Positions 430 to 63,999 of a stretch of DNA of 64,000 nt are shown piece by piece. Source of the DNA: Eutreptiella sp. 'Long Island Sound 2002'. Its lineage: Eukaryota; Protista; Euglenida. How positions within the stretch are numbered: the first letter of the stretch is position 1; every line of letters starts with the position of its first letter. The notes beneath the pieces were generated by a model. The model did no database searches and was not told where the DNA came from. It saw nothing but the letters and a program-made list of their open reading frames with translations. The translations under genes and the position numbers were made by a program. The stretch is taken from contig OZ038378.1 of the NCBI GenBank assembly GCA_964036045.1, positions 189,844,001 to 189,908,000 on the forward strand, in the 5' to 3' direction.

Positions 430-1090
430 CGCTGATGAGGATTGGGAGGGGTGTGAGGAATATAACAAGAAGATTCAGGAGCGGTATCAAGATACCGTGT
501 TTGAACCACGCGATGTGGGAACTATCTCGCCGGAGGCTATGGCTAACGGAGGACCTCATAATAAGGTGCAGTTGCAGTTAAAAAAAGAGCACGCAGGTGC
601 TAAGGCCGAAAAACCTATTCGCATGGTGGGAGTCAAGGAGGAAGCCTTGTTTGAGGAAATCAATACTTTCATGAAGCGTGGTATGTTGTGGAAATGCGAG
701 GGCAACCCGCAATGGGTGGCCCGGGCGTTTTTGGTTCCTAAGCCAGGAGGCAAGTGGCGGTTGGTCATTGACTACCGACACTTGGACTCCTGCCTTGAGG
801 ATAAAAACATTTTCCCTTACCCATCATTGAGGACCAATTGGCGGACCAGCAGGGAAATTTTTTATTCACCCTCATTGATTTGGAAGATGGCTTCCATCAG
901 ATGCATCTTGAGGAGGAGAGCAAGGATTTGACCGCTTTTTGCACCCCGTTTGGGGTCTTTGAGTGGAATGTGTTGCCAATGGGGGTGAAGGTAAGCACTG
1001 CTGCGTATCAAGAAATGGTCCAACATGTAATCCGCCACACCCCCTCCTGCCCCTACATCAACGACATCATGGCGTCGAGTGGAAGAAATT
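430..1090 (+). pseudogene. Decayed Ty3/Gypsy reverse transcriptase fragment
   Basis: Motifs AFLVPKPGGKWRLVIDYRHL, IDLEDGFHQM, TAFCTPFGVFEWNVLPMG and YIND (YIDD eroded) are split over two frames by a frameshift near 815-840. No RNase H follows. Confidence 0.88.
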
Positions 1091-1182
1091 TTAGACCCCC
1101 AAAGAGCTGTGGCAATCCTCTGCAGGGCAGTACAGAGGGCAAACATTTCTTGAGATTCAGTGGGATTTACGGGAAGTGCGTG

Positions 1183-33772: not shown

Positions 33773-33896
33773 TATCACACGTTTGACGGAGTAACACCGT
33801 CATACTACCTCAACTCCTCCAAGGCCACGACAAGTCTCGCCGCCTTCGTGTACTATTTACTATTTTTTGGTCCTCACTCGTTTGGTGAACGACACA

Positions 33897-35087: not shown

Positions 35088-35088
35088 T

Positions 35089-37728: not shown

Positions 37729-39059
37729 AGGCTGCCAAGCAAGTCGCGCATGATATGCTACTACAGTCGGCCACTGAGGCTGGCCTTGCCCCATTCCTGC
37801 AACGGGGTCCGTCGTTTGGTGTCCCATGCTCTTTTGCTTTCGTTAAAAACAAGAGCAATGAGTTGATTGATGAACTTAAGTGGCGCATACTCTTCTCCCA
37901 TTTTCACCACCCACTGAAAAAATATGGACAGCGTGTCGGGAGAGCCCTAACTCTGTTAATAAAAGCTGTGGTACAAGTGTTCGATACCTGGGCCATACTC
38001 AACACAGGTGATGTGCGTGAGTTCGCCGGTCGTGTGGAGTCCTCCCTGTCAAAACTGTACCCTGATGGTATCCCTCCGAAGAAACGTCCACATTTATTTG
38101 AACTCGACGTGAAGGAAATGTTCCCTCGCCTTCCTAGGGACGGCGTGATCTCTGCGATTACAAGCCTGGCTTCGGAACTCACCCTGTTCCTGAAAACACA
38201 CCCCCCCCCCGAGGGCACGAACCTTCCCCCACGGCTGCGTGTTGGCAAATCGGGCCTGATATTCAGCATTCACAAACGCAACCGGAAACTGGACAAATTG
38301 GGTAAGGGTTATGCATCTGAGTTTCATATTTTAACGATGCAAGAAGTGATTAATTATTTGAAGTTTGACATTTACACTAATGATCTTTTCGTCATTGGAA
38401 GCCGGATCGCACGACAACGCCGCGGAGTTGCAATTGGTGGTCCATGCTCTGCACAGTGTGCGCAGCTCTATTGCCTCTACCACGAAGTGCAGTTTCGCCA
38501 AAACAAAGGGAAGGGCTGTCGTTTAATGAAACGCCTACCGACAGGTTGCATGCCCATTGATCCATATAGGTATATGGATAACATTGTGGGTGTTATTTGT
38601 GGGTCTGTGTCACTGTCCCGCATCCAGAAAGCACTGCACGCTGTCTATGGGTTAGAGCTCCAAAAAGAAGGGGAGGGAAGCGTCTTGCCTTCCTTGGAGG
38701 CGATCCTGTCACTGAACGCACTCAGCGGATCGGTGGGACTAAGATTGAAACCCAAAGTGGATTACACCCTCCCCCCTCACAAACAGTTGTCACGCTTTCC
38801 TGATAAGGACGCCCTGCAATCACAACGATCTGCCAAAAGCATTGCTGTGCAACTAGGGATGAAATCCTCAGATTATAGTTCTTCGCTGGATGACATACAG
38901 TGTAATCTGTCTGCATGCATACAGGAGTTTGAGGCGAAGCGCTACCCAGGATCCTGGTGGCGGGCCCCTCTACTCGTCGGGGTCACACGTAGTGGACGGT
39001 GCCAGAATTCCGACATATTGCGTGTCCTGTACCCACCATGTATTGCACCCACAGACTGA
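37668..39059 (+). CDS. PLE reverse transcriptase (frameshifted continuation of ORF2)
   Basis: LFELDVKEMFPRLP, RQRRGVAIGGPCS and YRYMDN motifs. Lies in the -1 frame relative to ORF2, with an overlap window at 37647-37728. Confidence 0.88.
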   Translation: MRLLYQDDVQFETLHTLPTVKAAKQVAHDMLLQSATEAGLAPFLQRGPSFGVPCSFAFVKNKSNELIDELKWRILFSHFHHPLKKYGQRVGRALTLLIKAVVQVFDTWAILNTGDVREFAGRVESSLSKLYPDGIPPKKRPHLFELDVKEMFPRLPRDGVISAITSLASELTLFLKTHPPPEGTNLPPRLRVGKSGLIFSIHKRNRKLDKLGKGYASEFHILTMQEVINYLKFDIYTNDLFVIGSRIARQRRGVAIGGPCSAQCAQLYCLYHEVQFRQNKGKGCRLMKRLPTGCMPIDPYRYMDNIVGVICGSVSLSRIQKALHAVYGLELQKEGEGSVLPSLEAILSLNALSGSVGLRLKPKVDYTLPPHKQLSRFPDKDALQSQRSAKSIAVQLGMKSSDYSSSLDDIQCNLSACIQEFEAKRYPGSWWRAPLLVGVTRSGRCQNSDILRVLYPPCIAPTD

Positions 39060-41760: not shown

Positions 41761-42839
41761 CTCTATGAGGGGTCGTGGAGTGACACCCCTAGAGGTGGTT
41801 TGTAGCACCCCAACACCGCCGCATAGTGTGCTACCCAAGCACTAAAGCACCACAAGTGCTGTGAGACCACTCCACAACGTATGTCAACAAATAATGTGTA
41901 TTCTCTCTGATTCTAGTGGTTTTGCAACAAAATTTGGAGCAAAAGTTGGTCACTACAACATTGTACCACACCAATTTGCCACCCTTGATGATAGGCAACC
42001 AACAAATGCTTACAATTACAACACATCCCCAAGCCAGCCTTGTGTTGTAAACGTCAAAAGCACTTAGAAACGTGTTGAATGACCATGACTTACCTTATGT
42101 AGGCAGATGCAAGCCACATTTTGGTGGCAAAAGCAAACAATCTTCACAATTGTAGATCTTCTTCCCAACCAACATGCGCAGATTTGGTGCAAACACCCCA
42201 AGGGCCGAACAACGAACTTGTGACCTAGGGAAAGAAACCCTAACCGCGAGCTAAACCCATAAAACGTACGTCACCCTGTGGCCAAACACCCAAAAACGAC
42301 TTGCTTTTTTGCAGAATAACCTGAGCTGCACAAATTTGGGGAGCGGGATTCGAACCGGGCATTAAAACACCAGGCACATCACGTACGGAGCGAGCAACAG
42401 ATGAATCGCCAGCAGACAATGCATCCAAAATTCTGACAATTCAATTTCTTTTTTGCCTGCGGCTGGATCTGTGGATGTTTGCTATTTGGAAACCCAGTGT
42501 TTGGTTTTAGTTTGGTTTTGGTTTGGTTTGTTGTGTCAGTGCCCGCTGTCAGCGGCGGTTCGAATCTGGTGTTCACAGCTTGGGATCGCGGCTGTGCGCC
42601 GCGATTCTCCAGATAAGCGGTGACGGTATGCAAACTGCGGCCGTAGCAGACTGCGAAAGACTGCGCACGAACAGGCGACGCGCGCATTTACAACAACCGA
42701 AAAAACGACTGCAAATGATCTTCTGCTAAAAGGCGCAAATGGAGCGCGGTTGTTTCGAACCGTTGTGCAGCCCGAATTTATAAAATAGTTGCATTATTTT
42801 ATCGCCAGATAAAGGAACGATACCTGACGTGTAACGAGG

Positions 42840-43067
42840 CTACTCATTTTCAACTCCCTCCTACTCAATTTCAACTCCCTCTTGCTCATTTTCAAGTCCC
42901 TCCAAGTGAAAATCCACTCCCTCCTACTCAATTTCAACTCCGTCCTACTCATTTTCAAGTCCCTCCTACTCAATTTCAACACCTTCCTACTCAATTTCAA
43001 CTCCCTCCTACTCAATTTCAACTCCCTCCTACTCAATTTCAACTCCCTCCTGCTCATTTTCAACTCC
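42840..43067. repeat. 21-bp minisatellite, 11 units
   Basis: Consensus CTACTCAATTTCAACTCCCTC. Confidence 0.92.
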
Positions 43068-43069
43068 GG

Positions 43070-44010
43070 GCCTTGCGCAACGCCCTCACCCACTGGCGCT
43101 ACCGCCGGCGGAACCCGCCGCCGCCGCAGCCCCAGCCCCCACGTAAGCGACGACGCAGGCCGGCCCAGGAGAAGAGCGCGAGGGGATGGGGAGGGGACAG
43201 TGCCGCGGGACGCACCCCCCAGCAGGGCCAGGCCCCCCGACCCGGAGCACGACCCCCACCCCCCCCACCGCACGACGCGGCAGAGGGGCGCGCACCACCT
43301 CCAGTAGGGAAGAGGGCGGGGGCAACGAGCGCGGGGGGAGGCCCACTGCCCCACAGCCCACTAACTGCTAACCGCTGACCCGAACCGCCGCCCCCAGCAC
43401 TCGCCGGCCCTCCACCCCCCCTCCCCACCGGCGGGCCGGCACGACGCGGCAGCAGCGAGGAGAGAGGGGGACCTGGGCGAGGGCCTGCACCAGGGTCTGG
43501 CACCCAAGGGATGGAGGGGGGCGGGGGAAGAGTGCGCCCCCTCCGTCGGCGGCTAGCCCCCGGGGACCGGAACCACCAGGCCGCCCCCCTGCGACTGCCG
43601 GGGGGCGGCGCCGGGGGACCAGGGGGGGACTGCGGGGAACCCCCCCTCCCCCCCCTCCCTACCCCCCCCTCTCCCCCCCCCCGGCCCACGGACGGCCGGA
43701 GGCCGGCCAGGGAGGCGGCGGCCCCGCACCCCCCCCGAGAGGGCCGCGGCACGCAGGGGGGGGGACGCCAGAGCCGCGGCGAGCGCGGGCGCGCGCCAAG
43801 TGCCCCCAGTCGGCCGCCCACTCACTCCCGCGGCGCCCTCTGCCGACCGGCAGCTCTGCGCCGGCGGTCAAGGGCGCCCCGTGGGCCGCAGCGGAATGGC
43901 GACAACCAAAAATGCAGCATGGAGGGCGGGGCACAGACGAAGCGACCCGCCTTGGTGCCCGCCTCGAGAAGGCGGGGGAACAGACCGCGGCAAAGAGACC
44001 TCCTTTGATC
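43070..44010. other. Very GC-rich, CpG-rich block with G and C runs
   Basis: Sharp compositional shift. The overlapping ORFs here are low-complexity artefacts. Confidence 0.7.
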
Positions 44011-44427
44011 GGCATGGCTAGGGTGTGCTCCTGCCCTTGGCAGAGCTGGCAGGGCAGTGCGGATCGGCTGAGTAGTTCAGACGCGTGCGCGGTCTTTCAG
44101 AATTTCCTTGCGGTGTTGTTTGTGATACGCATTTCAGAATTGATTGACAGATCTCGATGGTTGTGTGGGATACATGAATTTTGCGCTTATGAGAGCTTCA
44201 GTCCTCAGTATTAATCAGCATTTCACAATGCTTTCCCATTTAGGGGCTTTGCCATGATTATTCATGTTTCATCGACTCCGACGGGCTTTTGAGGATCGCG
44301 TGGATTTCACATTCTGATTTTCGTGCATTTGTATTCCGTGCCTTCGTCAATTGGAGAATGGGTGTTTTTCAAGTAGAGCAAGAGCTTAAAAGATTCATTT
44401 ATCGGGTTTTATACGTCAACAATCACA

Positions 44428-47400
44428 ATGATGGAAGGACTCGAAAGCGTGGTAGCAGAGCAGGATGCTCTTGCTCACCTCAACTCACAACTTAAGTCCA
44501 GAGCACAACCTTGTCCCTTGAAAGAGGAATTCATGTACACGCCTCAAAAGGAAGTGGACCCGGACGAGCTACCGGATATCCAACCGCCAATGGCTCTTCA
44601 TTTTGATGACGGTAATACTCCTCAAGCCATTCCATTTCAAGCATTGGGTGAAGAAGAAATTCAACAACATGATCCTATGACTTTGTTGAATAGTCATGAT
44701 GAGGCTATTGAAGCTTTGGGCTCGGTGATTGATCAATTGGTTGGGTTTACCACTTCCCTTGCTCAACACAATCATGGGGAAGTTGGTAAGGCATTTGAGG
44801 ATCTTTCGCAACATCGTCGAGTGCTTGAACGGTTGAGGCTCAAGATCCGTCGACTCGTTGATCATGAGGAAAATACACAAGAGTATATGGTTGGTTTCGA
44901 CAATGTGTTGCAAAACTACATCCTTCCCACCTTGAAAAAATATTCCGCCGACATTCCGACGTTGCTTTCATTCAAGAAGATCTCTGAGAGCAAGCTGTCA
45001 ACCATTGAAGCCCATTTGACGTCCATGGAGAATTCTTTGAAGGATTGGAGTATGGAGATTTCCACGACAAAAAGTACGAGTGAATATGTTTCCCAACAAC
45101 ATGATCTTTTGTCCTCTTCGGTTTTGCAACTTCAACAACGAGTTGATCAAGTACAACAAAGTATGGGTCCTCTTTCAACATCCATGGGTGAAATTCGGTC
45201 ACAAATAAATTCATTGCAATCTCTCTCTTCTTCCGTGCATACGCTTGGCTTGCGAATGGATTCCATTGAGGGAAATATCAATTCTCGGTTTTCTGACATG
45301 GAGTCTTCCGTTAAGAGTAGTTTTGCCACGGAGCTCGGCTCGATGGAGAGTCGACTAAGGAATGAATTTCAATCCCAATTTGCTTCGTTTGATTTTGCAA
45401 GGTTTCAACAACATATTGAAGTTACGAATTTGAAACTGTCGTCGTTTGAAGAACAATTGGTGAATGTTGGTTATTTGCATTCTTTTGCATTGCTTTCATC
45501 GCGATTGGAGAGGAATGAAAAATTCCTCAATGAACTACAACCTCAAATAGCGATGACTCAAGTGTGGAGTAGGCGTTTAGACACTTTTGGTGCTCAATTG
45601 GACGAATTTCGAAGAATACAAGCCTCTCTTCCTACTCTTAATGTGAAGGTTAACGAGCTTGAGTCACAAATGAGTAGTGTTTTGTCGTGGAATTCTCGTT
45701 TGGGTGCCGTTGAGGGAGATGTTATTGGTTTCAAGTCGCATTTGGAATTAATTGACAATACACCTCCGCCGCCGCCCTTACCTTCGAAGGATGGGGCCTC
45801 TTCCACCGCCTTTGATTCATTACACAGACGTGTATCGGCGTTGGAATCCCGTCTCAATCCTTTGCATGATTCTTTTTTGCAGTGCACTTCTCGTTTACAT
45901 GCATTGCAATCTTCAATAGAGAGTCACAAGGAAGTATCTATTCGATCAATGGAGCAAATTCAAGAAAAAAATTCGAAACTGGAGATTTCCCATGGAGGTA
46001 TGCGGAGCGAGTTCGAGGTTGTTGTGGGAAAATTAGGCGTCTTGACAGCCCGAGTGGAAGAATTCAATGGGGAAGCGTTTTTGCGACGCTTTCCCATAAA
46101 TGAGATCGCCCGCCCTCAATTGGATTCACTTGCTCAAACAGCATTGGATGCCTTACATTCTTGCGAGGCTAAAGTACAATTTGCTTTGGAGAATTTTATT
46201 GTATCTCCCGAGGCATTCCAATCCATGTTTGAGGGCTGTTTTTCACACCCCCGTTCGTCCTTTTGTGGCGAAGTGAGCGATCTCTTTGTTAATCGCATTT
46301 GCGAATCCCTTTCCACCTTCCAACCTGTGCCTACTATCCTTTCTCGCCTTACTAAGGTCGAAGAAGAAGTGAGTGCATGGGCCGAATGGAAAGGAGATGA
46401 AACAATTCCACCCGATAAGACTGTTGAGGTATCCCACACTCCCTCTTCCTCCTCTGCATATCATGGTTCATTGGTAGAACACGAGAAAAAGGAAGCACCA
46501 CATTTGGCGGGGGGTGGGGAGACAAGGCCATCGGTGTCTGAGCCTCTGGCCGGTTGTGGATTGCCTTCCCATAAACTGCCGCCTCAATTCCTGGATTCAC
46601 AATTTTTGCGCATTCATCCGGTCTTTGAAGCTATGGCCACCGGTAAGATGGAATTATTTCGACGCGACCCCATTCGGGACGTGCCGGTTGAGAAGATTTT
46701 CTTGGACCGCTGGTCTTTTGCATCTTTTGTAATTAATGCTTCCAAGGCTAGCTTAGGGCAAGACGCTGTCCGTGATTATGTTAAAAGGAATCCAGAGGCC
46801 GCCCCCCTGATTAATGAGGTTGACCTAAAGCAAGGCCCCGAACCCAAGGACATCCTCTGGTCTTCCATTTCTCGTGATTGGTATTTGTTGGATAATGACA
46901 CAAAGAAAGACATTAAGGATAAGTTGAAACGTCCTACTTGGAAATTGGAGGATCCTGGACACCCACCCACTTGGCCTTCTTTCAAGCGGGAATGGGTCCT
47001 ATTCGCGGCTTATTGGAAGCCGCGTGTCCCGGAGGTAATCATGACCCATACACTTCTTTTCTCCTTGCCAGAGGCCAAAAAGGAATTGTATGGGGCCCTG
47101 CACAAGCATTTGGGCTGGGATTATGATCATATCTGGGATGATCTGGTGATTAGAGGCTCTGATCAGGAGGATCGTGGAGATTTGGGTGATCTATGGCTAT
47201 CCAAACAGCCACCAAAAGAGAAAACTGTGGATGGGCACACACAATGGGTCACTATCTGGTGTCTGCATGGCCAGCGTGCATCCCCTGTTACCTCTGAGCG
47301 GGCACGTGACGTTTTTGTGCAAGCGCTCGTGAATCATGGGTCGTACGAACAGGAAATGAATGAGGTCTACCGCATTCAGCGGCAGACCGGCAAAGAATTG

Positions 47401-47973
47401 GATTGGTCAATGATTCATCGTGTTGTTCTCTGGGAAATGATCTGGCGTGAACAGGCTTTTAAGGAGAAGCTCAGGGCACAGACTTTGGCGAAAGGTGGTT
47501 CTGTGCCGTTGCAAGTGGCACCTGGGGTGGGGTGCACCCACTGTCGACCCCAGGACCATGTTGCCGTCAACTGCAGGGCTGCAGGAGCACCTCCTGGTAA
47601 AGGTAAAGGTGGCCCGACTATTCCCAAGGGGAGAGGTAAAGGATCTTCGGGGTCACTGCTACCCCCAGGGTGCGATGCCTGGTCGGAGCTTAAAAGGAAA
47701 GCTTTTGATTCCCTGGTAGCTAGTTTGGCTGAGAATCTTACTGCAGGTCACTGTGGGTGGTTGGGATCTCCAGACCACAGGGCCCCACAGTGTCCATCTC
47801 AGAAGTCACTGTCTAAGCCAGGTAACCCCAAGGCGTCCGCCGGACCCCAGCCTGAGGCTGGACCCCGTGCCAAGCCGTCTCCAAATGATGGTGGAGGATT
47901 GTCCCCTAAGCCCCCCTCCCAGAGTGGAGATGGGGGGAGGGGGTGGCAAGGGAAACGGCAAAGGCAAGGGTAA
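44428..47973 (+). CDS. Large Gag-like protein
   Basis: 1181 codons; long heptad-rich N-terminal half; zinc knuckle CTHCRPQDHVAVNC plus an eroded second knuckle; G/K-rich tail. Confidence 0.8.
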   Translation: MMEGLESVVAEQDALAHLNSQLKSRAQPCPLKEEFMYTPQKEVDPDELPDIQPPMALHFDDGNTPQAIPFQALGEEEIQQHDPMTLLNSHDEAIEALGSVIDQLVGFTTSLAQHNHGEVGKAFEDLSQHRRVLERLRLKIRRLVDHEENTQEYMVGFDNVLQNYILPTLKKYSADIPTLLSFKKISESKLSTIEAHLTSMENSLKDWSMEISTTKSTSEYVSQQHDLLSSSVLQLQQRVDQVQQSMGPLSTSMGEIRSQINSLQSLSSSVHTLGLRMDSIEGNINSRFSDMESSVKSSFATELGSMESRLRNEFQSQFASFDFARFQQHIEVTNLKLSSFEEQLVNVGYLHSFALLSSRLERNEKFLNELQPQIAMTQVWSRRLDTFGAQLDEFRRIQASLPTLNVKVNELESQMSSVLSWNSRLGAVEGDVIGFKSHLELIDNTPPPPPLPSKDGASSTAFDSLHRRVSALESRLNPLHDSFLQCTSRLHALQSSIESHKEVSIRSMEQIQEKNSKLEISHGGMRSEFEVVVGKLGVLTARVEEFNGEAFLRRFPINEIARPQLDSLAQTALDALHSCEAKVQFALENFIVSPEAFQSMFEGCFSHPRSSFCGEVSDLFVNRICESLSTFQPVPTILSRLTKVEEEVSAWAEWKGDETIPPDKTVEVSHTPSSSSAYHGSLVEHEKKEAPHLAGGGETRPSVSEPLAGCGLPSHKLPPQFLDSQFLRIHPVFEAMATGKMELFRRDPIRDVPVEKIFLDRWSFASFVINASKASLGQDAVRDYVKRNPEAAPLINEVDLKQGPEPKDILWSSISRDWYLLDNDTKKDIKDKLKRPTWKLEDPGHPPTWPSFKREWVLFAAYWKPRVPEVIMTHTLLFSLPEAKKELYGALHKHLGWDYDHIWDDLVIRGSDQEDRGDLGDLWLSKQPPKEKTVDGHTQWVTIWCLHGQRASPVTSERARDVFVQALVNHGSYEQEMNEVYRIQRQTGKELDWSMIHRVVLWEMIWREQAFKEKLRAQTLAKGGSVPLQVAPGVGCTHCRPQDHVAVNCRAAGAPPGKGKGGPTIPKGRGKGSSGSLLPPGCDAWSELKRKAFDSLVASLAENLTAGHCGWLGSPDHRAPQCPSQKSLSKPGNPKASAGPQPEAGPRAKPSPNDGGGLSPKPPSQSGDGGRGWQGKRQRQG

Positions 47974-48016
47974 TGGTAAGGGCAAGGGTAAGGGCAAGGC
48001 TTAGGGTTGTCAGAGG

Positions 48017-51000
48017 GTGTCGGTGAATCATTGTCTGGTGCGGCGCGAGGGTGAAACGACTGATTTCGCCCTGGTTCAATCATCAATGACCCCGTCGGGG
48101 CTCCCTTCTGTTAATGAACCGACTGGGTCACGACCGTTTCAGGTCTGCTTAACGTGTGTTGATGTGCCCGCCTGTCCTGCATCTGCGGATCGGCTTGGGG
48201 GCACTTTGGTGTGCCGCACCAAGGTAGCGCGGGTGAAAGCCCGGCTGCCGCAACCGGTCCACGGCAAGGCCACTGAGTTAATCGTACCAGCCACTGTCCA
48301 GCTTTCTAATTGTGAAGGCTGTGACCGCAGGGTGTCGCTTTTGCCCGATGATGGCTGTGAGGTCTTTGCCCTGGCGCCGTTTGATTTCTTTCCAGCGGGG
48401 ACTCTGATTCCAGCCCGTTGCCCCCTGAAAATTGTTGCCATTGAAGGTAGTAACATCAGGAGAGGCACACAGTGCCAGCTCGGAATTCTTCAGGGCTGGA
48501 GGAGCTCATTCATTGCAAGCGGGCCTTTGTGTACGCGGCCGACGTGCGTGGAGGCCTTGTTGTAGGGTACCCATTTTTGAAGGCATATGGGCTCTGTGTT
48601 GAGCCAGTTGCCGATTGCCTGCGGGACGACCCGTCACAGTCACTGTCGGTGTCTCCTGCAAGTTCAGAGTTAGTACAGGATAATTCTGACAAACAGGGTG
48701 ATGTACAGTGTGCATGTGTTTCACACTCTGCTCTCCATTCAGTCTCTGGGTCTGATCCAGGGGTATTGTTGGACGGCGTTTTGCAGTTGTTTTTTCCGGG
48801 GGACGCCTTGGAGACTTTGCATCTGCGCCCACTCCGTCCATTTTGCCTGTGGTCCCGCCTTTTTTGAGTATGAGCCCATATATTTTTGCATGCACGCTTG
48901 CATGCCGTTATTTATGCTCTTTCTTTCTGTTTTCTGGAATGTACCTTTCTACAGTGCTGTGGGGTACGCTGATGTGGACACCTTGGACTTCTGCGGCCTC
49001 GTCGTCTGGTTCGCAACTTGCGAGAATTTCTGCAGGTTCCTGTTCTTGTGGTGTGGGGTGTAAGTGTGTAGATGGGTGTGTGGAGTTGGGGCTGCGCGGC
49101 GCGTGGTCAATACCCATGCATCCAGAACTTATTCCACCGCCGCTGTGCGCCTGTGAGGACCCTGCAGTCAGGTGTCCCTGCGCTGTTTCGCCTGTGCCAG
49201 CAGCGCCTTCAAATTGTCCTCCTTTGTTGCCGCCGCCAGAATTTGTGCGGCGTTCCATTGTACATAGTGCTGAGGCCACTGACGATGAGTCTGATGGCAT
49301 TTCTGATTTGGAGTCCGATAGTGGCTCTGACGCTGGGGTCGTCCTGGAGCAGGACAAGCCCCCTGATTCGTTTGCTGCAGGCTGGGGTCATTCTCAGTTT
49401 TATGGGGGAGCGTGGACTGCGTCCCCTGGTGATTTTACAAGTCATGCCGTGCCTGTTACAGTTGGACCAGCCCTGCCGGAGAGAGATGATCCCCTTCTTG
49501 CTAGGGGTCTAGCTGTCAGTTCAGTACAGGATGATTTTTTTGCTTCCCGTGTTCCTCACAGTGCTGCTTCCTCTGAGGGGTGGACAGCTCATGAGCGCCT
49601 GGTTCATGAGAAAAAACGGTTCCGTATGACTGCCAAATATGTGTATGCCCGTGATCGGGCCTTCCTGGATTCCTCCGTGCGCGAGGATATTTTGTCATGG
49701 GCTGGATTGGCCTCTGATCGGAAGTCTATTCGTGAATTGTTCCCTGGGAGTTTGGATTCCTCCTTCAGGCCTTTGTTGTCTGGTGGTAAGGCAGATGTGT
49801 GGAATACGTGTTGGTCTGCCCCGTTGCTGTGGGTACAGGCCCCCCGGGCGAAATGGGGGGCTGCGCTACAAAAAGCTTTGGTTGATCAAGCCAAAGGTAT
49901 TGCCGTAATCCCGGTGGACAAGGCCAAGTCTTGGTTCTGGGCCCTGGGTGAGGTAGCGGTAGACTGGTGGGATATCCCCCATCATTTGCCCATTTTTTCT
50001 GACGCTGAAGGATGGAGGTACCCATAGCAAAAGGGTGTGACCACCCGTGTGGTGTTGTTTGATGCGTTTGGGAATGAGCAAGGGGATGACAAGCCGACTG
50101 AGGGGTGGGATGATGTCCAGCCGGGCGAGCAGCCTGGCGGGGGTGGGTACCAGTCACGGGTGAACGTGAAGCGGCTGCATGCCCTACATCCTGATTCTCC
50201 CCGTTATCATGCGGTTGAGACACGCTCAATCCGAGGTGCTGTTGAAGTCGACCAACTGGATGAGCGTCGCCAGCATTATAGGGAGTTGCTCGAAAAAGAG
50301 TTTGCTGATGTTTTCTCATTCCCAAATGTAACGGACGTTCCCGATGACCTCAGGGGCCCACACTCCATGCATCAGATTAAGCTGAAGGACGGAAGTAAGC
50401 CCCAGAAGTGTAGTCCCATTAGGCTGGCGGGGCTCAGGGAGGCTGCATTTCACTCCCAGATTCATAAGTTTGAGTCGAGAGGTATGCTGAAAACCTCTGA
50501 GTCAGAATGGGGTGCGCGGGCATTTATAGTCTGCAAACCGGGCGTCAACAAATGGCGCCTGGTTATTGACTACAGATACCTCAACACCTGCATCTCTGAC
50601 GATGCACACCCCCTGCCCTTGATTGAGGACATGGTGGCACGACAGAGTGGAAATGCACTGTGGTCCGTCTTTGACTTAGAAGACATATTCCATCAGATGC
50701 ATCTCCACGGTGACAGTCAGCCGCTGACGGCCTTTGTCACGCCGTGGGGGTTTTATGAGTGGACGGTATTGCCGATGGGCCTGAAAACGGCCCCATCGGC
50801 ATACCAGAGGTTGGTGAGTTGGTGTCTCCGGGATTTTACTCGGAGGTATGGCACTGAGCCGTACATTGACGATGTGTGTGATGGAACCGCGGATAAAGAT
50901 AATCCGGATCCGGTGGACTTGGATGCCCCATTAAGTGATACGTGTTTGCAGGAGCATTTTTCTCAATTGCGGGAAGTTTTTCTGCTCATGAGAAGGTATC

Positions 51001-53333
51001 GTCTCACCATTAAACCGGGTAAGTTTGTTTTGTTCGCTACCCGGGTGAAGTTTTGTGGTCATGTGCTCATGAGGGGGCGGAGGGCACCGGATCCAGAGAA
51101 GACAGCTGCGGTGATGCGCCCGGATTGATGCGCAATTAAGACACCCGAGCACATGAAGGCTTTCCTAGGGTTTACTCAGTGGTACTCCCTCTATGTGCGG
51201 GGTTATGCTAAGTTAGCGGCGCCACTGATGGAGTCATTGAAGGGCCTGGATGTGACTAAGAAGCAACGAAAGGAGAGTAAGGCTTCGCGTAAAAACCAGT
51301 CCACATCAGGCCCAGATTTGACCCCCCAGGAAGCTGCCAAATCCCGTAATGAGATTTTTTGGACCGAAGAGATGAAGCGATGTTTTGAGGAGCTGAAAAT
51401 CCGTACTCGGGATGGGGCAGTTTTACATCAGCCTGACATGAATGCACCCTTTTACTTGCGGTGTGACTCGTCCACCTACGCGGTGGGTGGTGTGATCGAG
51501 CAAATGGGGTCTGCAGGTAGTCTGCGGCCTGTGGCTTTCTTTTCTAGGAAGCTGCAGGGAAAAGTGGGGTATGGTCAGCGGGGCTGGTCCATACGGGAAA
51601 AGGAGACGTACGCCATTGTGGCTACGTTATACAAGTTTCGCAGTTGGCTGCGTAATTCCCCCATCAAGGTTCAGGTGCTCACTGATCACGAGTCGCTGTA
51701 GCAGTGGCACACTGAGCAGTTGGATACAATGGCTGGCCCCATTGGTAGGCGTGGCCGTTGGCATCAGTTTTTATCCACCTTTGACATAGAAGTCATTTAT
51801 GTCAAATGTGAGGATCAGCAGGTGCCTCATATTTTGTCACGTTGGAGTTACCCTGCGCATCAGGCAGCACCTGATGTCAGCATACATGGGTGTGAGACTG
51901 ATGTTTCCGGTTGGGAGCAGGATGAACAGGAGGTGAAGGCCTGGGCTGATTCTGAGTTGCAATTCTCTCGGCGGGTGCGGCGTTGGGTGCGGTCAATAGG
52001 CGGAACGCCCTCCTGTAGGTCCAGGCCTGTTGAAGGCCGCCTCCGGGCCTTACAGACTGGTCTGAAAAATCAGTGCTGGAGTCCCAACTCGTTTGCTTCT
52101 GCTACTGTGCATTCTCCTGATGCCTTGCTGCTTGGTGATTTGCCTGTTGCTTCTCTCAGGAGTGGTAGAGCGCATCCTAAGGCTGTCCCGAAATTGGCAG
52201 CTGATGTACAGGTGCTGTTCGATGACTGGACAGACTCCTATTTGGCAGATCCAGATTTGGCAGGTAAGTTCGCTGCACTCAGTTCAGGCATTTCATTCTG
52301 GCGGGATTACCTGCCGCAGCATGTGATTTCTGGCAACAAGCTGCGCTGTGCAGGAAAAATTTTAGTACGTGCTGCCCTCGTGCCGCGGGTGATGGCTGCT
52401 GTACATAGTTACATGCATGGGGGCATAGAGAAGACATATTAGTTGGTGCTACGGCATTTTTCTGTGCCCAGTTTGAAGCTTGATGATCTGTATGCCGCTG
52501 TTAAGACTCACTGTGATGCCTGTCATGTCTATCAGCAGTCCAAGCCACGTGTAGGGGTTCACCCAGACTCCTCGCACTATTATCCGATCCCGGATGAGCC
52601 TTTCAGTAGCTTGGCGCTTGATTTTCTGGGTTTGAAGTCTGTTGATGTCAACAGTGTACAGTATGACTGTTGTATGGTTGTTGGTTGTCGCCTCACAGGC
52701 TATGTGTTGGCGATCCCCTGTGCCAAGGCTGGCCTTGATAGTAGGCAGGCTGCTGAACTTTTCCTTTGCCATTGTGTGTTTTTTATGGGTTTGCCTCAGA
52801 AGTTTCTGTGTGATAATGCTTCTATCCTTAATCCTGATTTCCTCACCACGGTGGCGGAGTTGTCGGGGATAGAAGAATATCACAGTGTTATATACAGGCA
52901 TAACAGCAATGGTAGGGTGGAGTCAGGGGTACAGGGGGTCATGATGGCGCTCCGTAAGTATTTGTGTCAGCTTGGGCGTGATTGGTATCATGCATTGCCT
53001 GTGGCGGTGTGGGGCCTCAACGATCTGCCCGGGATCGTGGCCCCGTATTCCCCACACCGCCTGCTGTTTGGGAGGGACCCTGCTGGCTTTGAGGACTGTC
53101 CTCCGTATGTGTCGGAGGAGGGCAGCGAGGACGCCCTGGATTTTTTTTCGCGTCTGGCAGATGAGCGTCAGCACGTGAAAAGCAAGCTGGAGTCCCTGCA
53201 TGCGGCTGTGGCCAAGCGATTCTCGTCCTCCATTTCTCCGCTGAGCTTTGAAGAGGGTGATAGAGTTTGGTTGAGGGATCAGCCTAAGGCGGAGCAAAAA
53301 TTTTTTGATAAGCTGAAGCGGGTTTGGCGTGGT
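48017..53333 (+). pseudogene. pol: protease remnant, Dam-like remnant, RT, RNase H, integrase
   Basis: LVVGYPFL (PR); WRLVIDYRYLN and PYIDD (RT); LRCDSSTYAVG and VLTDHESL (RH); CDAC, LALDF, FLCDNA and SNGRVES (IN). In-frame stops at 50025, 51126, 51699 and 52440; frameshifts in the PR region. Confidence 0.92.
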
Positions 53334-54432
53334 GACTACGTTCAATCGACTTTGCACAAAATGCATCGCTGCATCTTGGGCCACCTTTGACTTTGGGTTC
53401 ACGTACATCCGGGACACATTGGCAGGAACACAATAACAATCCACAATGGAGTGGAAACGAAAAAGTTTGTCAGGTTCCATTGAAGCACCCCGGAGATTGG
53501 AGGGAGACAAGCATTCATTATCCAAAACATCAGCAACAAAGCCATCAACAAATCTATGATGCCTGTGACGAACTTGCACATTGCTCATTAACGTTTGCTG
53601 GACACTGGAACACTGATTTCGGTCCAGCAGGGTTGGTACAATACAGTACGTGTAATGTATTGTATCGTTCCGATACAGTACTGTAATGTAATGTATTGTA
53701 TCTCAAAATTTTCTGACAAAGTAGTGTTTTAGTTTACAACCTGCAATGGTTTGCGAAAACAGTTTTTTGCCTTTGTTTACGTTTTCTGGATACCTTTTGT
53801 TCTATATTTGTTTATGATGTTCAAGACAGGGTTGGGATTAACAAACGTTGCTTGTTAATTTTTTTTTGAAAATTAACGAACGAACGAACGAACGAACGAT
53901 GAAAATAAACGAACATCGTTTGTCAATTTTTTCCTTGTTCATGTTGTTTCGGTTTGCTTCTAATGGTTTACTTGCTTCTATTGTGCCCCTTCCTAGTTCT
54001 TTTTCAAAAAAAGTAGACTCACAATGTTTTTTGTGGACAAAATAATGTTTCGGATTTTTTTAAAAACCATTGTGCTTCTTTTGAAAAAAGAATAATTCAG
54101 ATATTTTTGAAAACCATTGCGTTCGAGATCAAGGCCCCAGGAATTCCAGCCTCACAAAGGCACCTGTCCCCAGGCTGACCACCAAATGGCCAAAAATGGC
54201 AAATGGCAAAAAGTGAGCAACCAGCAAAAAATAAAGCAAGCGCATGTATCTGTACAGCTGCTGCAGCACACATAACAGGTCCCTGGCGTCACTTGAAGCC
54301 TCTGTGCAGAAGTGAAATTTCGAGATTCAAATGACATCACTGAGATGCAGCAGCAAACTGACTGAGTCCACCATAAAGGGTCATATAAAGGACAACGAAG
54401 GCTCACTCAAAACTGTCGAGACAACAGAAGCG

Positions 54433-54797
54433 AGCGCGACGAACACTCAAACGACACTCACAGCACGCGCCGACACTCAAATGACACTCACAGCACGCGC
54501 CGACACTCAAATGACACTCACAGCACGCGCCGACATTCAAATGACACTCACAGCACGCGCCGACACTCAAATGACACTCGCAGCACGCGCCGACACTCAA
54601 ATGACACTCACAGCACGCGCCGACACTCAAAGGACACTCACAGCACGCGCCGACATTCAAATAACACTCACAACACGCGCCGACACTCAAATGACACTCA
54701 CAGCACGCGCCGACACTCAAATGACAATCACAGCATGCGCGAACACTCAAATGACACTCACAGCACGCGCGAACACTCAAGTGACACTGACAGCACC
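54433..54797. repeat. 30-bp minisatellite, about 12 copies
   Basis: Unit GACACTCAAATGACACTCACAGCACGCGCC. Confidence 0.95.
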
Positions 54798-55618
54798 TTC
54801 TTCCTTTTGTGCTCCTTCTTCGTCTTCTTTGTCTTCACTCCTCAGTCTTCTTCGCTGCTGCAGCTTCTCGATCTTCTTCTGTCTTCTTCTTAACGTCTCT
54901 TTGATCTCCTTCGCCTCTTCCGCTTCTTTCTTCTGTTCTTTCTCTCTTCATATTCTTCCCTCCTGTTCTTCTTCTCCTTCTTCTTCACTTGCTTCTTGTG
55001 AGGCCCTGCAAACGCAAGACAGGCAGTAAAATTCAACCACCAATGTTAATCAAACGAAATCCAAATTAAAATCATTGCAAATTCTATAAAGTACCTCACA
55101 TTTGCACGATCAATCCTTGGCCATGTTTGTTTGCTCAGCGGCGCCCGCGGCTGGCGCCAGATGCTAGCCTAGGAACAAGACGCGTACTGTATTGTATTCT
55201 CGCGATACAGTACGCGTGTATATACGTTACGCGTATATATACGCCGTCTTTTCCAACCCTGCGGTCCAGCCTTATGTCCTGCACACCCTGTCCTGCACCC
55301 TGTCCTTCGCTCTCCTTTTGGCTCGGACCAAGATGAGCTGGCGTAGGCTGCTCACTTCACAGTACTCGAGGTGACCCCTCGGGATCAAGGATCAGAGCTG
55401 TTCAGTGCTAGGATGATCCCACAAATGACTGTGGTAGCGGATCTGACACGTAGTGAGGATTAGCTGAGTCTGAAACCAGGCCATGCAGTGGGAGACTGCC
55501 ACGCCCGTAGGCTTCCCTGTGTGCATGAGGCACGATGACTGTAGGCTGAAAAGGACAGCGGTGTGAAGATTGAAGGCCGAGGTGAATGAGCAGGTTGCAT
55601 GTCATACACTATCAGAGT

Positions 55619-55825: not shown

Positions 55826-57563
55826 GCGGGATATCCCTGTTCTGCAACCCGCGAGATCTGGAACCCGATTTCTAACCATTAAATCAATGTAGAATTACCA
55901 TAACTTTATTGTCTTAGGCGACTCTCGGTCAGAAATCGGTGAAATACCCAATTTTTACCGCGATTTCCAATTGTCGTGAAATCGCCGCAGTCGCGCCGCC
56001 TGTCGTCGCCCGTTCCGTGGACTTGAAGCCGGTTCGGACCCCCGTGGCCATCTTTGGGTCACTTGGGCTGTGTATCTATGTGCCGGCAAGCCGCCATTGG
56101 CTGATATCATACTCTCCCATCCACCTGACCTAACCCGATGTGATAGTGTGATAGGTTTGGCCATTCCGGCTATGAGCGGCCATATTCAGTACTGAGGCGC
56201 CGCCAGCGGAGATCTATATATCAGAATATCAGGAATCAACAGGGTTTTTTTATCATAATGTTTCCGTAATTTTTGAGCCTTCCGTTCTGATGGTCAATGT
56301 ATCGGCGACTGTCAGTTGGCTCGCGATTTTGCGGTAACCGAATGGTTAAATGTTATTTACGGATATTTTGGCGGAAACCCCGATGAAGGGTCAGATTTCA
56401 TCAGTAAAGGGTTCGTTGCTTCCGCAATTTTCATATTATACACTCGCAAAATTAATCCGATTTTTTCAGACTTTCAGAATCGGATTTTCGAGTTCGACAT
56501 CGCCGCACTTGATATGACGAATCTCGAGTGGTCCTACATTTTCCCCCGATCACGAATCAACTTTCCTTTTGTTATGCCCTTCGCTTTTCTTGGAGATATA
56601 GGAGAAACAAAATTGATTCGTGAGACCACTTTGAAAGGTCATATCTCCGGCTCACGGCGAGGAATATCAATTTCGAGAATTGGGTTGGAACCGCCTTGGT
56701 CTCAACTTAATTTAGGAAGCATCAAACGCCTTTTTGTGTGTACACATGCCCGGTGTAGCAAGGGATAATGGTCAAGAGGGTAGAAAGTGATATATAACTC
56801 TTGGACCGTGCGACCGAACATTTTATTGTGACTTTCGAGTGTACCGCATGAGTGTTGGGGTTGCATAGATAATTTTTTTGGGTTCCCACGTATTTTGAAC
56901 GTGAAGTTATGTCCATGGAGGGGCTTGGCATACCATGGTGGGAGCCACTTTTCGAGGGTATGTGTTATATGCATGGTATGTGCTTCGATATGCTCACGCC
57001 CATGTTATATATCTTCGTGTGGCCGAAGAGATGGGGAGCCACACGTGACAAGGGCTTTGCCCATGTCCCAATTGTGGAATTCAAAGCGCTAGACCAAGTC
57101 TACCGCGTATGTATTGCTCATGGTATGTGTGGCAAAGAGATCCATGAGTGCACTCCCATTTTCATGGGGCATGTAGATATGAGTGGCGAAGGTATCTCCA
57201 TGCGCCCGATTGGGGATCCAAGTGGGGGAATTGTTCGCAAAGGGTTCCAATCATTTGTGTATTGAACCATGAGCGGATATCATGGGTGAGCATAGAGATA
57301 TACTATCATGACAACTTTGTATTTGGACATATTTTCATGTTTTTGACCTCATTTTATGCTCATTTTTGTATTTTATGTGCTCAACTGGTCGGCTAGCAGT
57401 AAAGTGCCTAGAGATCCCTGAACTATGGTATGTTGCTTATATGTTGGCATATGCTTCGGTGTTGTACCTCACCATATGCCGGATCACATGGTCACTTTGG
57501 CGTGGCACACGAGGCCTCACAAAATTAGGTCTCAAATTCATGAGCTGACTCGCGAAGCATGCC

Positions 57564-58043
57564 TGTAACCGCTGCATACTGGTTGATCTTTGTTGTAACT
57601 GCGAAGCCTGTAGCCTTGATGCCCCAGGGGTCGTAACGCCCGACACTGCCCCTGATATCTCCGAACCCACATAACCCTCTTCGGACCCATATCCAGCCTC
57701 TGGGAGCGACATATGCAAAGCACTTGTAAGTCCTTTGAACTCCATGGTGGAATATGAAGAGTACGAAAACCCGGTCTACAAAAATGGAGCAGACATAGAA
57801 TCTCAATGCGCATTCATCGCACATAATGACACAACGTGAAATCATTCGAAATAATTGAAATAAATCCGATTGGGAAATCACGAAAGACAAATGCGACTCG
57901 ACGCGCGCTCACAGGCGACATCTGGCGGCGAACGGAAAACATGAAATGAAGCGGAAAATTTACTGCACTAATGTACATCTGAGAATCATTGAAATTCTGA
58001 TCACATCAGTGTATAATTGAGTGCTGTCACTGCTGCCGTTACA
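57564..58043 (-). repeat. 3' LTR, about 480 bp
   Basis: TGTAAC...GTTACA inverted termini, preceded on the minus strand by a PPT. The far end is inferred because the 5' LTR is absent. Confidence 0.7.
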
Positions 58044-58053
58044 CTCCCCCTCT
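58044..58053 (-). promoter_or_regulatory. Polypurine tract
   Basis: AGAGGGGGAG directly before TGTAAC. Confidence 0.85.
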
Positions 58054-59387: not shown

Positions 59388-62300
59388 TCAGATCTTGTCA
59401 TGAATGGATGATGCCACAATTGGAGCTTCTTCTTGTGCTTGTAAGTCTTCCTTGGTGACACAATCCTTGATCAGCGAGAGCTCTTTGTCAATCTCAGGGT
59501 GTTTCTTCAGGAACTTGATGAAAGTATCCGTATACCCATGGATGAAACTTGAAGCTGGCTCCCATTTGTCTTCTTCTGGACCGAATCCTTTCCATCTGCA
59601 CAGAAAGTACCACTTGTTTCGAGCATTCTTCTTGTAATCAAGGATCTTCTCCAACTCGAAACTGCTTGTGACCATCTTCCTGTCGCTCAGGTACTTCGAA
59701 GTCCAATAGAGAGGCTTGAACCTTCCTTTCGGGCAGGGTACTTCGGCCTTCAAACGATCACGATGTACTTCTTGATGCCTGCCTGGCTCAATCTGAATGT
59801 TGAATGTAGTCTCACTTAGTTGACCACTGACTTGGAATGGGCCATCCCACAAAGGTAACAATTTGTTGTCGTCCTTCAGGGTCTCGTCTGACTTGCGAAG
59901 CCAAACTTGCTGGCCTTTCTCGAAGGGTTTTCCTTGCGTTCTTGACTTTTTTTTGAAATTCAACCAATCTGCTTGACTTTCCACTTTGGCTTGGATCCAC
60001 TTGGCTTCTAAATCCTTGATCCTCTCAAACCATTGCGAGGCGTCGTAGCACTGCCTTGGATGATACATCACTGGTCCTGGACCCATCTTCTCGCGACCAA
60101 AAACCAGCTCATTCGGACTTAATCCAGTGTAATTCTTGGTGCGATGGTATCTTCTCAAGACACAGTAAATTGTCTCCAACCAATTGTAGTCTTTTTCAGT
60201 CGCCAGGAATTTTCTCAGAATGGAGATAAGAATTCTTCCAGCGCGTTCAGCAGGGAGAGCTCGATGGTCGTAGACTCGGGCACGAAGGTGATGAACTCCC
60301 AATAGGGCACACATGTTCTCCCACCAAGTCCCAATGAACTCTTTCCCACTGTCCGTCAGAATTTCACTGGGTACATCCCAGTTACTCATCCACTGACTTG
60401 CAGTCCACTTGGCAGCCATTTCAGAGGTGAGATGCTTCGTGTTGCAAGGGAGGACTTGGATGTAGCCACTGTGGCGGTCTTGAATTAACAAAACCCCATC
60501 GATAGGCTTCCTCGTGTAGAGACATTCCTCTTGGATTTGTCCCAACTCGAAGACATCCGCCGTCACCTTGTCGAACAGCCTCTCAGGAATTGGTAATCCC
60601 TTCAGTAGTCCTTCTGCCTTTTGATTCTTCGGGATAGTCGCCTGACATTGCTTGCATCCTTTGGCAACTCGTTCACAGGCACTCCTGAGGTCCCTTGTGT
60701 ACACTCTGTGGCGTAGCTCCTGCTCCAGCACACGAGAATGTGTGTGGGCTGTCTCATTCCGATGCCAATGTTTGACATATTTGTCAATCAGACAATCAGG
60801 AACACAAATCCGTCCTTGCCAAAATAACTTGTCGCCTTGGATTTTGAAATCAGACGTCTCTTCAGAGTCGTAAGGCTTGTCCCCTTTCAACTTGTGGTAT
60901 ACAGACCCAAACAACCTGTCCTCCTTGTACATCTTCGTCCAATCCACATAGAGGAAGGAAGTTTCCTTGTCCGTTTGTTGTGGAGGGAGCGTGGATTTCG
61001 CTTTGGATCTCGTCGTAGGAAACACATTCAGGAGTGGCAGCGACGACTCAGAGTCAGAGTTAACTCCTGCAGTCTGATCTGCCTTGGTAATCTCCTTGCA
61101 TCTGACCAAATCCACCTTCATCCGATTTTTAATCGAACATTGGAGACAATGTTTCTTGATCAGTGCTTGTTCCTCCTTTTCGAACTCGATCACTTCAGCT
61201 TTATCCGTCGCTGTCCCATGAAAACTCACTTCAGAGTAAGCCTCTGAGGCTGGGTAGGCCCAGCGACTCAGGGCGTCTGCCACTGTATTGTAGCGACCCG
61301 GAATGTAAGTCAGATTGGAGGTCAAATCTGCTGAGAGTTTCATGCCAACGGCCTCTTCTCCCAGCTGGTCCACCAGGGGTATCCACATGTTCTGTCCTCC
61401 AGCTCTCCAGTGACTTGTGGTCAGTCAGTACCTCAACGCGATGGCCCAAGATCCAACCTTCATAACGCCGTAAGGCACAAAGGATTGCGTAGGCTTCTTG
61501 TTCCCTTGGACTCCAATTTCGCTGTCTTGTTGTAAGCTTGCGAGACCAGAAAGCCAGAGGATGATGGTGACCTTCGTCATCGACTTGTTCGATCGTAGCA
61601 CCAATGGCGTAACGACTGGCGTCTGTACGAATATAAAAAGGTCTTCCATCCAACCACGGAGTCTTTAATGTAACCACATTTGCCAGTGCTTCCTTGAGAC
61701 CAATAAAGGCTTCTTCACATTCTGGCGTCCACTTGAGCTTGACTTGAGATCCTTTCTTTCCTTCTATTTTGCCAACCTTGAGTAACTCTGTCAATGGACC
61801 AGAGAACTTGGCGTAGAGAGGAAGGAACTCGTGGTAATAATTGCAGCAGCCTAAAAAGGCACGAAGCTGCGTGATGGTTTTAGGCCTTTCCCAAAGCTGC
61901 AGGGCAGCCATTTTTCCTGGGGCTGGTCTTCTTGTCCCATCTTCCAAGACAGAGCCACAAAATTCCACACTCTGGAGGAACATCTTGCCCTTCTTGGGTC
62001 CACACACGAGCTTCTCTTGTCGAAGGACTTCGAGAACTTTTCGAACTTGTTCTTCGTGCAACTTCAGGCACTCATCAAAGTTGTTTCCCAACGGCGTGGC
62101 AATCAGAAGGTCGTCAATGTAGATGGAGCAGAATTCTTGTAAATCCAGATCTTTGTGCTTCTGAAATAAAATAGTCTCCATCATCTTCTGGAACATCGAC
62201 GGCGCATTCTTCAGACCCATCGGCAGTACAGTCCACTGGACAGTGCCACAGGGCGTGCACATTGCCGTCAAATGCCTATCCTCCTTTCGAAGGGGCATCT

Positions 62301-63999
62301 GATGAAAGCCATGGCGCAAATCCAACACAGTAAAGAGCTTGCCTTTGGCTCTCACGGCGATCTCCTTCTCGATTAGAGGCAGAGGATGCGCGTCTGGTAC
62401 TGTGGCGGCATTCAGGGCTCTGCAATCCACCACTAGACACCAAGCATCTATGCTGGATTGGTCAGCAGGTGGGGGTTCTGGCACAGTAAATGGTGCTGAA
62501 CACCACTCAGAACTCATGCAGCCCTCCAACCAAACAAACTCATAGAGATTGCGCTCAATAATCTTTCGCAGGGCATCTGCTTTGGTGCCGTGGAGATAGA
62601 ATGGACGTTGTTTGTGCACCTTTGAGCCTTCGATTATGTCAATCTTGGCTTCCCCATTTTCACATGGAATTCGGGGGTTTTTCCACAACTTCCCACTCAG
62701 CACGTCATCTTGATAATCTTCGAACACTGCGTCCCTTCTTGCAGCTATCTTGTCTCCGTCGACCTGATTCCCACATTTAATCACCGACATTATGTCCACC
62801 AATTTGCGAATTGTTGGTCGTGGTCTCATGTTCTTGGCCACTTCATTCCAAACTTCTTCGTCGCATTGCTGGCGGATGAAGCTCACCTGAGCTCGCTCCT
62901 CCGTGGGATCCCACCAATCAAAGGGGTCCACGAATGTCTTGAAAAGATGGTCGGACGAATTCAGCTTCATTCCTGTCAATTCAGGCGAGATTCTTGGAGA
63001 TTTGTCTTCATTCTTGCTTGAAATCTTGACATTTTTGGCTTGATTCTTGTCTGATGGGGACGAATTGTAGTGGATGGAGGCGTTCTCTTGAGGGACGCCG
63101 ATTGTCCTTCCCTCCTTCCGCGACGATACGTCGGGATTCCGCTCTCGATCGTCTTCATCCACCTCAATTTCGTCGATTCTTGAGGAATTTGATATGACCT
63201 CTTCTGTTCCCATTTCACTGTCATCTTGCCAATAATCTCCCAGATTCCCGTCAACTAAGCACGCCAACGTGCTCCACGAACGCTGTGGCAAAGGCTTGCC
63301 ATTGTCTTCGCAATACAGCTTCACTCCTTTGTGAGGTAGCTCGACAATGTCGATTGAAATGTCCATAATGTCCTTGAACCACTCTTGTCTTGGCCAATTG
63401 GGGACAATTAAAATCGCCTTTGCGCCGGATTGCTTCAGCCTCTGCACCACACGAGGGAAAACGTCCAAGGGCGGATTGATCCAAAGAGGTTCAGACCAGT
63501 CCTCACTCCAGGCATCGTCGTAGAACTTCGGAAATCTTTTATTCTTTTTGTTTGCAAAGGCATCAACTTCAGGACGAAAATTGTGGTTCTTTTCGAAATA
63601 ATCCACCAGAATGTCCCGCCATTTGTCGACTACTCGATAGCAAACTGACCCTCACTTCTTGCAGTTCAATGATTCCACCTTTCCTTCGTCGAATTCTTCT
63701 TGATTCCCTGTCCATTCTTGCCCATCTTCCTGAAAATGCAGCTTATTTCGCTCTTTGAATTGGTGGATACTCTTGGTATATGGGTGCAGATAATACAGGT
63801 CAGACGGGTCGCTGGTCGACGGATCCTGGAGGAAGCATGTCCTGTGTCCCATGGGCGACACGCGGTGAGCGTGAAGCCAGGGTTGACCCAAGAATAAATC
63901 ATACTTTATACTGGCTTCATAGAATTTTCCAGGAAACCACTCCTCCGTGACCGTCTCTTCCACGCTCCACACAGATTGTTTCACCAATCTGACCGCCAA
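59388..63999 (-). pseudogene. pol polyprotein with one TGA (63652-63654) and one frameshift (about 61310)
   Basis: DLFLGQPWL (PR); EVDAFA..WINPPL (MTase); YIDD (RT); IRTDAS and LTDHKSL (RH); H-H/C-C, TADVF, LTDSGKEF and PAER (IN); FELEKILDYKK..YFLCRWKGFGPEEDKWEP (chromodomain). Confidence 0.93.

Follow-up and report, generated by a model that had tools for sequence, protein, structure and literature searches.

What is a methyltransferase-like sequence doing inside the polyprotein of a chromodomain-bearing retrotransposon, and is it a methyltransferase domain at all? The question was raised by a stretch of 64,000 nucleotides of Eutreptiella DNA (hereafter the window), in which the original prediction, made from the letters alone, had placed a Dam-like amino-methyltransferase between the protease and the reverse transcriptase (RT) of a chromovirus. 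The predicted peptide maps to 63247-63651 on the minus strand, at the top of a stop-to-stop frame of 806 residues that also contains the RT and RNase H downstream of it, and it shares its frame with the protease half upstream, with one stop in between. Its two signature sites are where they had been placed in the pol frame: DAFA, which we take to be motif I and which would form the SAM-binding loop, lies at 63553-63564, and NPPL, the motif IV of this copy, at 63466-63477. As had also been pointed out, the latter is one base from NPPF or NPPW, its last codon being TTG. The paired motif I/IV pattern occurs once across the six frames of the 64-kb window. The domain is 135 residues long and balanced in charge, with 20 K+R against 20 D+E and hence no net positive charge. 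The observation of a methyltransferase-like domain is real and is confirmed by what follows.

Profile searches, comparison with phages and structural comparison (Pfam, PHROG, phage tblastn, Foldseek, VIA-align and an AlphaFold2 model) all bear on its assignment as a PF05869-type amino-methyltransferase domain. Taken in isolation, the 135 residues score 25.1 bits against Pfam Dam (PF05869; E 1.5e-5), below the curated cut-off of 28.1, and Dam was not reported when the whole 806-residue ORF was scanned against Pfam. PHROG 111 is matched at E 3.4e-6 and TIGR01712 at E 3.2e-4, the latter far below its cut-off. With tblastn we found 16 phage records (E 4e-4 to 9e-3), every match lying over an annotated DNA methyltransferase; the annotations read DNA or adenine methyltransferase, and N4-cytosine in none of the 16. 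A phmmer search with the domain over 1.84 billion representatives returned 1439 proteins at E up to 0.001, of which 150 were listed and 92 of these scanned with Pfam: Dam was matched in 75 of the 92 at E up to 0.01 (a hand count, among the matches listed), and the PCIF1 model weakly in five (E 0.0015-0.007). Among 62 diverse relatives, hand-picked from the 150 as short proteins spanning most of the domain, motif IV aligns as NPP[FYW] in 54, and the D and F of the motif I-like DAFA are each conserved in 61. Against PDB sequences, neither direct phmmer with the domain nor a 63-row profile search gave a significant match. The proposed relation to the PF05869 domain of DIRS elements and phages thus withstands the profile search, with both the Pfam and the PHROG matches in its favour.

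The predicted fold agrees. From an alignment of the domain with the 62 relatives, AlphaFold2 produced a model with a mean pLDDT of 96.1 and a pTM of 0.90. Among predicted viral structures this model comes closest to N6-adenine methyltransferases of phages (E 1.9e-8; the first four have TM 0.71-0.79), as expected of the amino-methyltransferase fold that had been predicted. Among solved PDB structures, ranks 1 to 6 of Foldseek are all PCIF1/CAPAM (best E 9.2e-4, TM 0.62). VIA-align likewise puts CAPAM on top (Z 9.7, rmsd 3.0, 123 aligned), followed by a putative archaeal RNA methyltransferase (Z 9.0), METTL5 (8.1), T4 Dam (7.7) and E. coli Dam (7.3). The modelled fold is that of an amino-methyltransferase, but the match does not separate DNA from RNA enzymes, since the top two are tied, with Z within 1, and the sequence searches turned up no solved structure of a close relative. 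We are nearly certain that this is a phage-Dam-like (PF05869) methyltransferase domain in a Gypsy Pol.

The surrounding pol, all of it on the minus strand, confirms the predicted order, with the domain between protease and RT and an integrase and chromodomain downstream, as judged from Pfam and from comparison with a close relative, P0029. At the window end lie the C-terminal half of an aspartic protease and a linker (63655-63999), which share 94% identity with P0029, beginning at residue 98 of the latter; the catalytic aspartate falls past the window end. This half has no Pfam match of its own, but with residues 26-170 of P0029 the protease regions of several relatives are matched (E 5e-17 to 6e-11), and three of these relatives have weak Pfam protease matches. 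An in-frame stop (63652-63654) separates protease and methyltransferase in this copy, where P0029 and a second relative, P0031, read through. Below the domain come a poorly conserved, partly acidic linker (62700-63246), an RT core of the Ty3/Gypsy type (61954-62439; RVT_1 E 1.5e-25; best solved relative Ty3 RT, E 6.5e-52) and RNase H (61324-61731; RT_RNaseH E 5.7e-27). These are followed by a DDE-type integrase with zinc-binding, core and C-terminal domains (59748-60803), which has three Pfam matches, each below its curated cut-off (Integrase_H2C2 E 0.004, rve E 1.7e-4, Integrase_p58_C E 5.6e-5), and, at the end of pol, by a chromodomain (59547-59660; Chromo E 6e-7, above the cut-off; best solved relative CDYL2, E 2.9e-11). 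The frame is broken at 61313-61316, past RNase H and ahead of the integrase, where P0027 is uninterrupted in one frame and where contigs from three runs differ by an indel. This copy is dead, given the stop above the domain and the frame break near 61315.

Further downstream, a candidate polypurine tract (58053-58044) is followed by TG, the possible start of the 3' LTR (58038-58053, minus strand); the 5' LTR lies beyond the window. No direct repeat marking an LTR pair was found in 40000-64000, the search for an inverted LTR end remained at chance level and Rfam gave no match. The JGI metagenome contigs scanned yielded 43 pattern matches, 0 confirmed loci and no full element with both LTRs. One contig of run X8 has a loose end that resembles an adapter; it falls at 59063, within the 3' untranslated part.

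The other copies show what the domain looks like elsewhere in the family. Of 60 candidates, 16 proteins were retrieved by a search with the domain, and they split into A (about 81-97% identity) and B (53%), a sister family. Their largest clusters have 1584 and 964 member proteins, not all of which need span the domain, and the family proteins in ENA may largely stem from the window's own assembly, in which case they are copies and not independent species; P0223 is identical to a window gene. The domain was matched in 63 of the 72 family proteins examined, so that the prediction does not fall for want of the domain in other copies. The family consensus that had been called for gives NPPF as motif IV in 23 of the 31 members of family A that span this site (NQPF, NRPF and NTPF in two each, NPLF and NPPL in one each) and in 26 of the 28 such members of family B (DPPF and IPPF in one each). 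A further close representative, P0073, also has NPPL, which indicates that the variant is common to a few copies. NPPL is thus a minority variant, and the family motif is NPPF. Departures from the majority in family A affect 8 of 124 cells of motif IV (6.5%) and 202 of 4268 cells of the whole domain (4.7%), similar rates that are the pattern expected from decay after insertion. The element is a high-copy, chromodomain-bearing Ty3/Gypsy retrotransposon with the domain between protease and RT.

Both P0029 (family A) and P0031 (family B) hold protease, domain and RT within a single ORF. In this one protein pair the domain is 54% identical, against 47% for the protease, 67% for the RT and 20% and 24% for the linkers before and after the domain. 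That the domain is conserved like the protease and the RT, and unlike the linkers, suggests that it has been under selection in active lineages. In place of the D-T-G protease triad of relatives, both proteins have D-N-G; the site lies past the window end. The stretch is present, in whole or in part, in at least 20 runs; these belong to 11 studies and comprise three coded organisms as well as metagenomes from estuary, sediment and urban samples. In X3, an independent metagenome run, a single contig (61838-63447) links the RT to the lower half of the domain. One RNA run contains 0.06 of the window words, and its six contigs do not reach the domain.

The arrangement is not confined to these families. 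The order protease, domain, RT recurs in the distant long proteins P0089, P0094, P0121 and P0165, and P0121 also terminates in a chromodomain. In a quick tree of 114 rows the domain clusters with protease-DAM-RT Gypsy relatives and some proteins of DIRS order, on long branches; the tree reveals no donor. By atlas taxa, which draw on few records, the domain falls to Preaxostyla and another RT to a mixture of groups. P0178 has the DIRS order of RT, RNase H and domain. Two further proteins are of the Copia type, P0093 with integrase, Dam and RVT_2, and P0157 with Dam (E 0.037) and RVT_2. A search of the literature for adenine methyltransferases in Copia elements brought up no relevant paper, and the word 'Copia' is absent from the main text of a recent survey of DAM domains in transposable elements (Fernandez-Moreno et al., bioRxiv 10.64898/2026.05.21.726589, May 2026), although its Chloro-Ochrophyta clade, in which integrase and RT flank the domain, may correspond to these Copia-type proteins. 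Other layouts were seen as well: P0182 combines Dam with a weak C5 methyltransferase match (E 0.005), P0192 has Dam heading a long RT protein whose RT reads as LINE-like, and P0197 has Dam downstream of a Gypsy-type RNase H. The first two echo layouts reported for Euglena.

The window also holds a second Gypsy family with the domain, family C, at 44377-53387 on the plus strand, the domain lying before the RT at about 49626-50084. Homology is clear from the profile (E 3.7e-20; HH probability 97.8), and the domain is 42% identical to that of a relative with NGPF, against 25-30% in the linkers. None of 10 copies, which span 62-88% identity, has NPP[FYW] as motif IV (QAPR in eight, QAPS and HAPK in one each), motif I is ELFP in eight copies, and 11 of 31 proteins were matched. 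The degenerate catalytic motif is a trait of family C. The domain went undetected in a Pfam scan, and a Pfam screen such as that of the preprint (hmmsearch, E 1e-5) would thus be likely to miss the family. For P0343, a family C protein, modelling gave high confidence across the domain and a match to N6A methyltransferases of phages, but the fold is biased because 43 of the 49 alignment rows came from other families. For a weak tblastn match at 56356-56457 the profile search gave no confirmation.

Other features of the window can be noted briefly. At 33795-39056 (plus strand), zinc-knuckle-like motifs and a GIY-YIG endonuclease (E 0.0016) precede an RT-like ORF that has YMDN where the catalytic motif is expected; with its nuclease before the RT, this element is presumably Penelope-like. 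A third Gypsy RT fragment, frameshifted and nearest to P0165, lies at 392-1092 (plus), and an intronless host-like gene with no Pfam match and 194 relatives from transcriptomes and metagenomes at 2826-4241 (minus). Two tandem arrays lie at 54353-54856 (30-base period) and 42819-43112 (21-base period). Over the whole window CpG (0.69) and TpA (0.57) are both under-represented.

How might such a domain serve the element? The identity of the domain, its place in pol, its conservation in the family and the decay of this copy are observed; beyond the identity of the domain, we infer each step of the following mechanism, to which, taken as a whole, we give an even chance. In intact copies the domain would N6-methylate adenines in the element's own replication intermediates. 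It would be made and packaged as part of Pol and, as a part of Pol, would sit in the particle beside the RT. As 135 residues leave little room for a target-recognition domain, closeness and not sequence would pick the substrate, probably nascent cDNA or an RNA:DNA hybrid. The methylated cDNA would be inserted by the integrase, with the chromodomain as a guide, and the mark could then favour an open state or be kept up by host 6mA enzymes, as in the model of the preprint.

In favour of N6-methylation of replication intermediates are the profile and fold matches, the single ORFs of P0029 and P0031, the conservation of the domain between families A and B, the motifs in relatives and the 6mA excess of the preprint. 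There, DAM-LTR insertions in three species are reported to carry more 6mA than other LTR elements do, an enrichment that is a correlation and occurs at ApT, the site of the host AMT1; RNA:DNA intermediates are proposed to be methylated, with upkeep by AMT1 thereafter (bioRxiv 10.64898/2026.05.21.726589). Against it stand the E. coli assay of the same work, in which domains from DIRS, DAM-LTR and adintovirus elements gave no 6mA in a dam-minus strain, the RNA enzymes ahead of T4 Dam among the nearest solved folds, the absence of net positive charge and the presence in the window of family C, which has spread with a degenerate motif. Literature searches for a caulimovirid Dam assay and for phage HP1/VT2 Dam found no relevant paper.

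Family C raises the question of whether catalysis is what is retained. The domain may be kept for binding (of nucleic acid or SAM), for Pol processing or for particle assembly, as would suit a family that keeps a homologous domain, more conserved than its linkers, while NPP[FYW] is absent from all 10 copies, and also the negative E. coli assay (bioRxiv 10.64898/2026.05.21.726589) and the judgement of Iyer et al. that the DIRS domains are likely to be inactive (PMC4738411). However, the family of the window copy and the great majority of the diverse relatives (54 of 62) retain an intact catalytic motif, which a role in binding alone would have no obvious need for, and family C may be a local loss of the motif. 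We regard retention for a non-catalytic role as possible, albeit rather unlikely.

If the domain is catalytic, its substrate could be RNA: an N6-adenosine methyltransferase could mark the element's transcript, next to the cap or internally, and aid stability, translation or packaging. CAPAM leads in both structural comparisons, five of the 92 scanned relatives weakly match the PCIF1 model and Iyer et al. assign the domain of DIRS elements to the PCIF1 clade (PMC4738411); such an activity would also account for the negative DNA assay in E. coli, and neither PCIF1 nor CAPAM is mentioned in the main text of the preprint (bioRxiv 10.64898/2026.05.21.726589). By sequence and predicted fold, however, the domain is much nearer to phage N6-adenine DNA methyltransferases (E 2e-8, TM 0.71-0.79). 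CAPAM, whose Z is within 1 of that of rank 2, may lead by default because no close solved relative was found, and its helical domain, needed for cap and RNA binding (PMC8287941; bioRxiv 10.64898/2026.10.22.757692), has no room here. On balance we think that marking of the transcript is unlikely.

The product could also be N4-methylcytosine and not N6-methyladenine, as the N6A and N4C amino-methyltransferases share their motif IV chemistry. N4C enzymes follow an SPPY rule, but it is NPP and not SPP that predominates among the relatives, and no phage match (0 of 16) is annotated as N4-cytosine. The E. coli assay of the preprint scored 6mA, according to its main text, and would be compatible with an N4C product (bioRxiv 10.64898/2026.05.21.726589); we nevertheless find this product very improbable. 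Finally, an accidental arrangement, be it through a motif arisen by chance, a DIRS fragment nested in the element or a chimeric assembly, for which one could invoke the Pfam score below the cut-off, the silent scan of the full ORF and the preprint's own warning on nested insertions and assembly artefacts in Euglena, is refuted by the domain matches in 63 of 72 family proteins, by the fact that the domain sits in frame between protease and RT in two families that share 53% identity, by the same order in P0089, P0094, P0121 and P0165 and by the independent X3 contig that joins RT to domain.

One might speculate further that the retrotransposon 'DAM' is a minimal PCIF1-like enzyme, whose substrate in the particle would be RNA or RNA:DNA hybrid of the element itself and not chromosomal DNA. 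We consider this improbable; if it were true, NPPF families writing the mark beside a QAPR family with the fold but without catalysis would amount to a natural experiment, with a module that has also spread to Copia elements. Catalysis by the DIRS/LTR methyltransferase domain is here a prediction. With two large NPPF families and a motif-degenerate family in one genome, the model of the preprint becomes testable within a single epigenome: under that model, 6mA would be expected to go with the NPPF families, not with the QAPR one.

How does the element compare with known systems? DIRS elements carry a methyltransferase domain of the same Pfam family (PF05869; PMC3783388), in the order RT, RNase H, methyltransferase, with a tyrosine recombinase and without protease or DDE integrase. 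The order here is protease, methyltransferase, RT, RNase H, integrase, chromodomain, and this order, together with the presence of the protease and the DDE integrase, rules out a DIRS identity. The phage N6-adenine methyltransferases (PF05869, TIGR01712, PHROG 111; for example gp40 of Pantoea phage PSKM) share the motif I/IV spacing and the fold, but they are free-standing genes in replication modules, with 25-31% identity to the window domain. PCIF1/CAPAM (PDB 6irx, 6iry), the best solved structural match, has the NPPF catalytic loop and 14-16% identity; the window domain lacks the WW and helical domains that are joined to the methyltransferase there, having about 45 residues between protease and domain and a variable linker after it. 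No C5 cytosine methyltransferase (DNMT) was matched in the scanned ORFs of the window, where tblastn with the DNMT-like part of P0182 also gave nothing at E 0.01, and the end of P0027 coincides with the end of the window pol. Within the window, the lack of a DNMT thus indicates that the element is not an EpiLTR, a class that has a C5 cytosine methyltransferase in addition to DAM and chromodomain.

The closest comparison is with the DAM-LTR elements. The original prediction implied that such a capture in a chromodomain-bearing Gypsy element was novel, a claim that does not stand: Fernandez-Moreno et al. report DAM domains in Ty3/Gypsy elements of five lineages, with chromodomain LTR elements as the largest class (30.9% of DAM-TEs; bioRxiv 10.64898/2026.05.21.726589). 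Their Chlorophyta DAM-chromovirus-like clade and Euglena DAM-LTR/DIRS group likewise combine an Asn-Pro-Pro pocket, a Ty3/Gypsy pol and a chromodomain. The word 'protease' is absent from the main text of the preprint, and its figures or supplements may already show the protease-DAM-RT order or the family of the window element. Here, the profile match is borderline for this copy (E 1.5e-5), Ty3/Gypsy RT and RNase H share one pol, Asn-Pro-Pro is followed by an aromatic residue at the family level (NPPF), with NPPL in this copy, and the chromodomain typical of chromoviruses sits at the integrase C-terminus. The element thus has the testable defining features of DAM-LTR elements. It is a new example of their kind, and it adds a lineage and a set of controls to a system already described.
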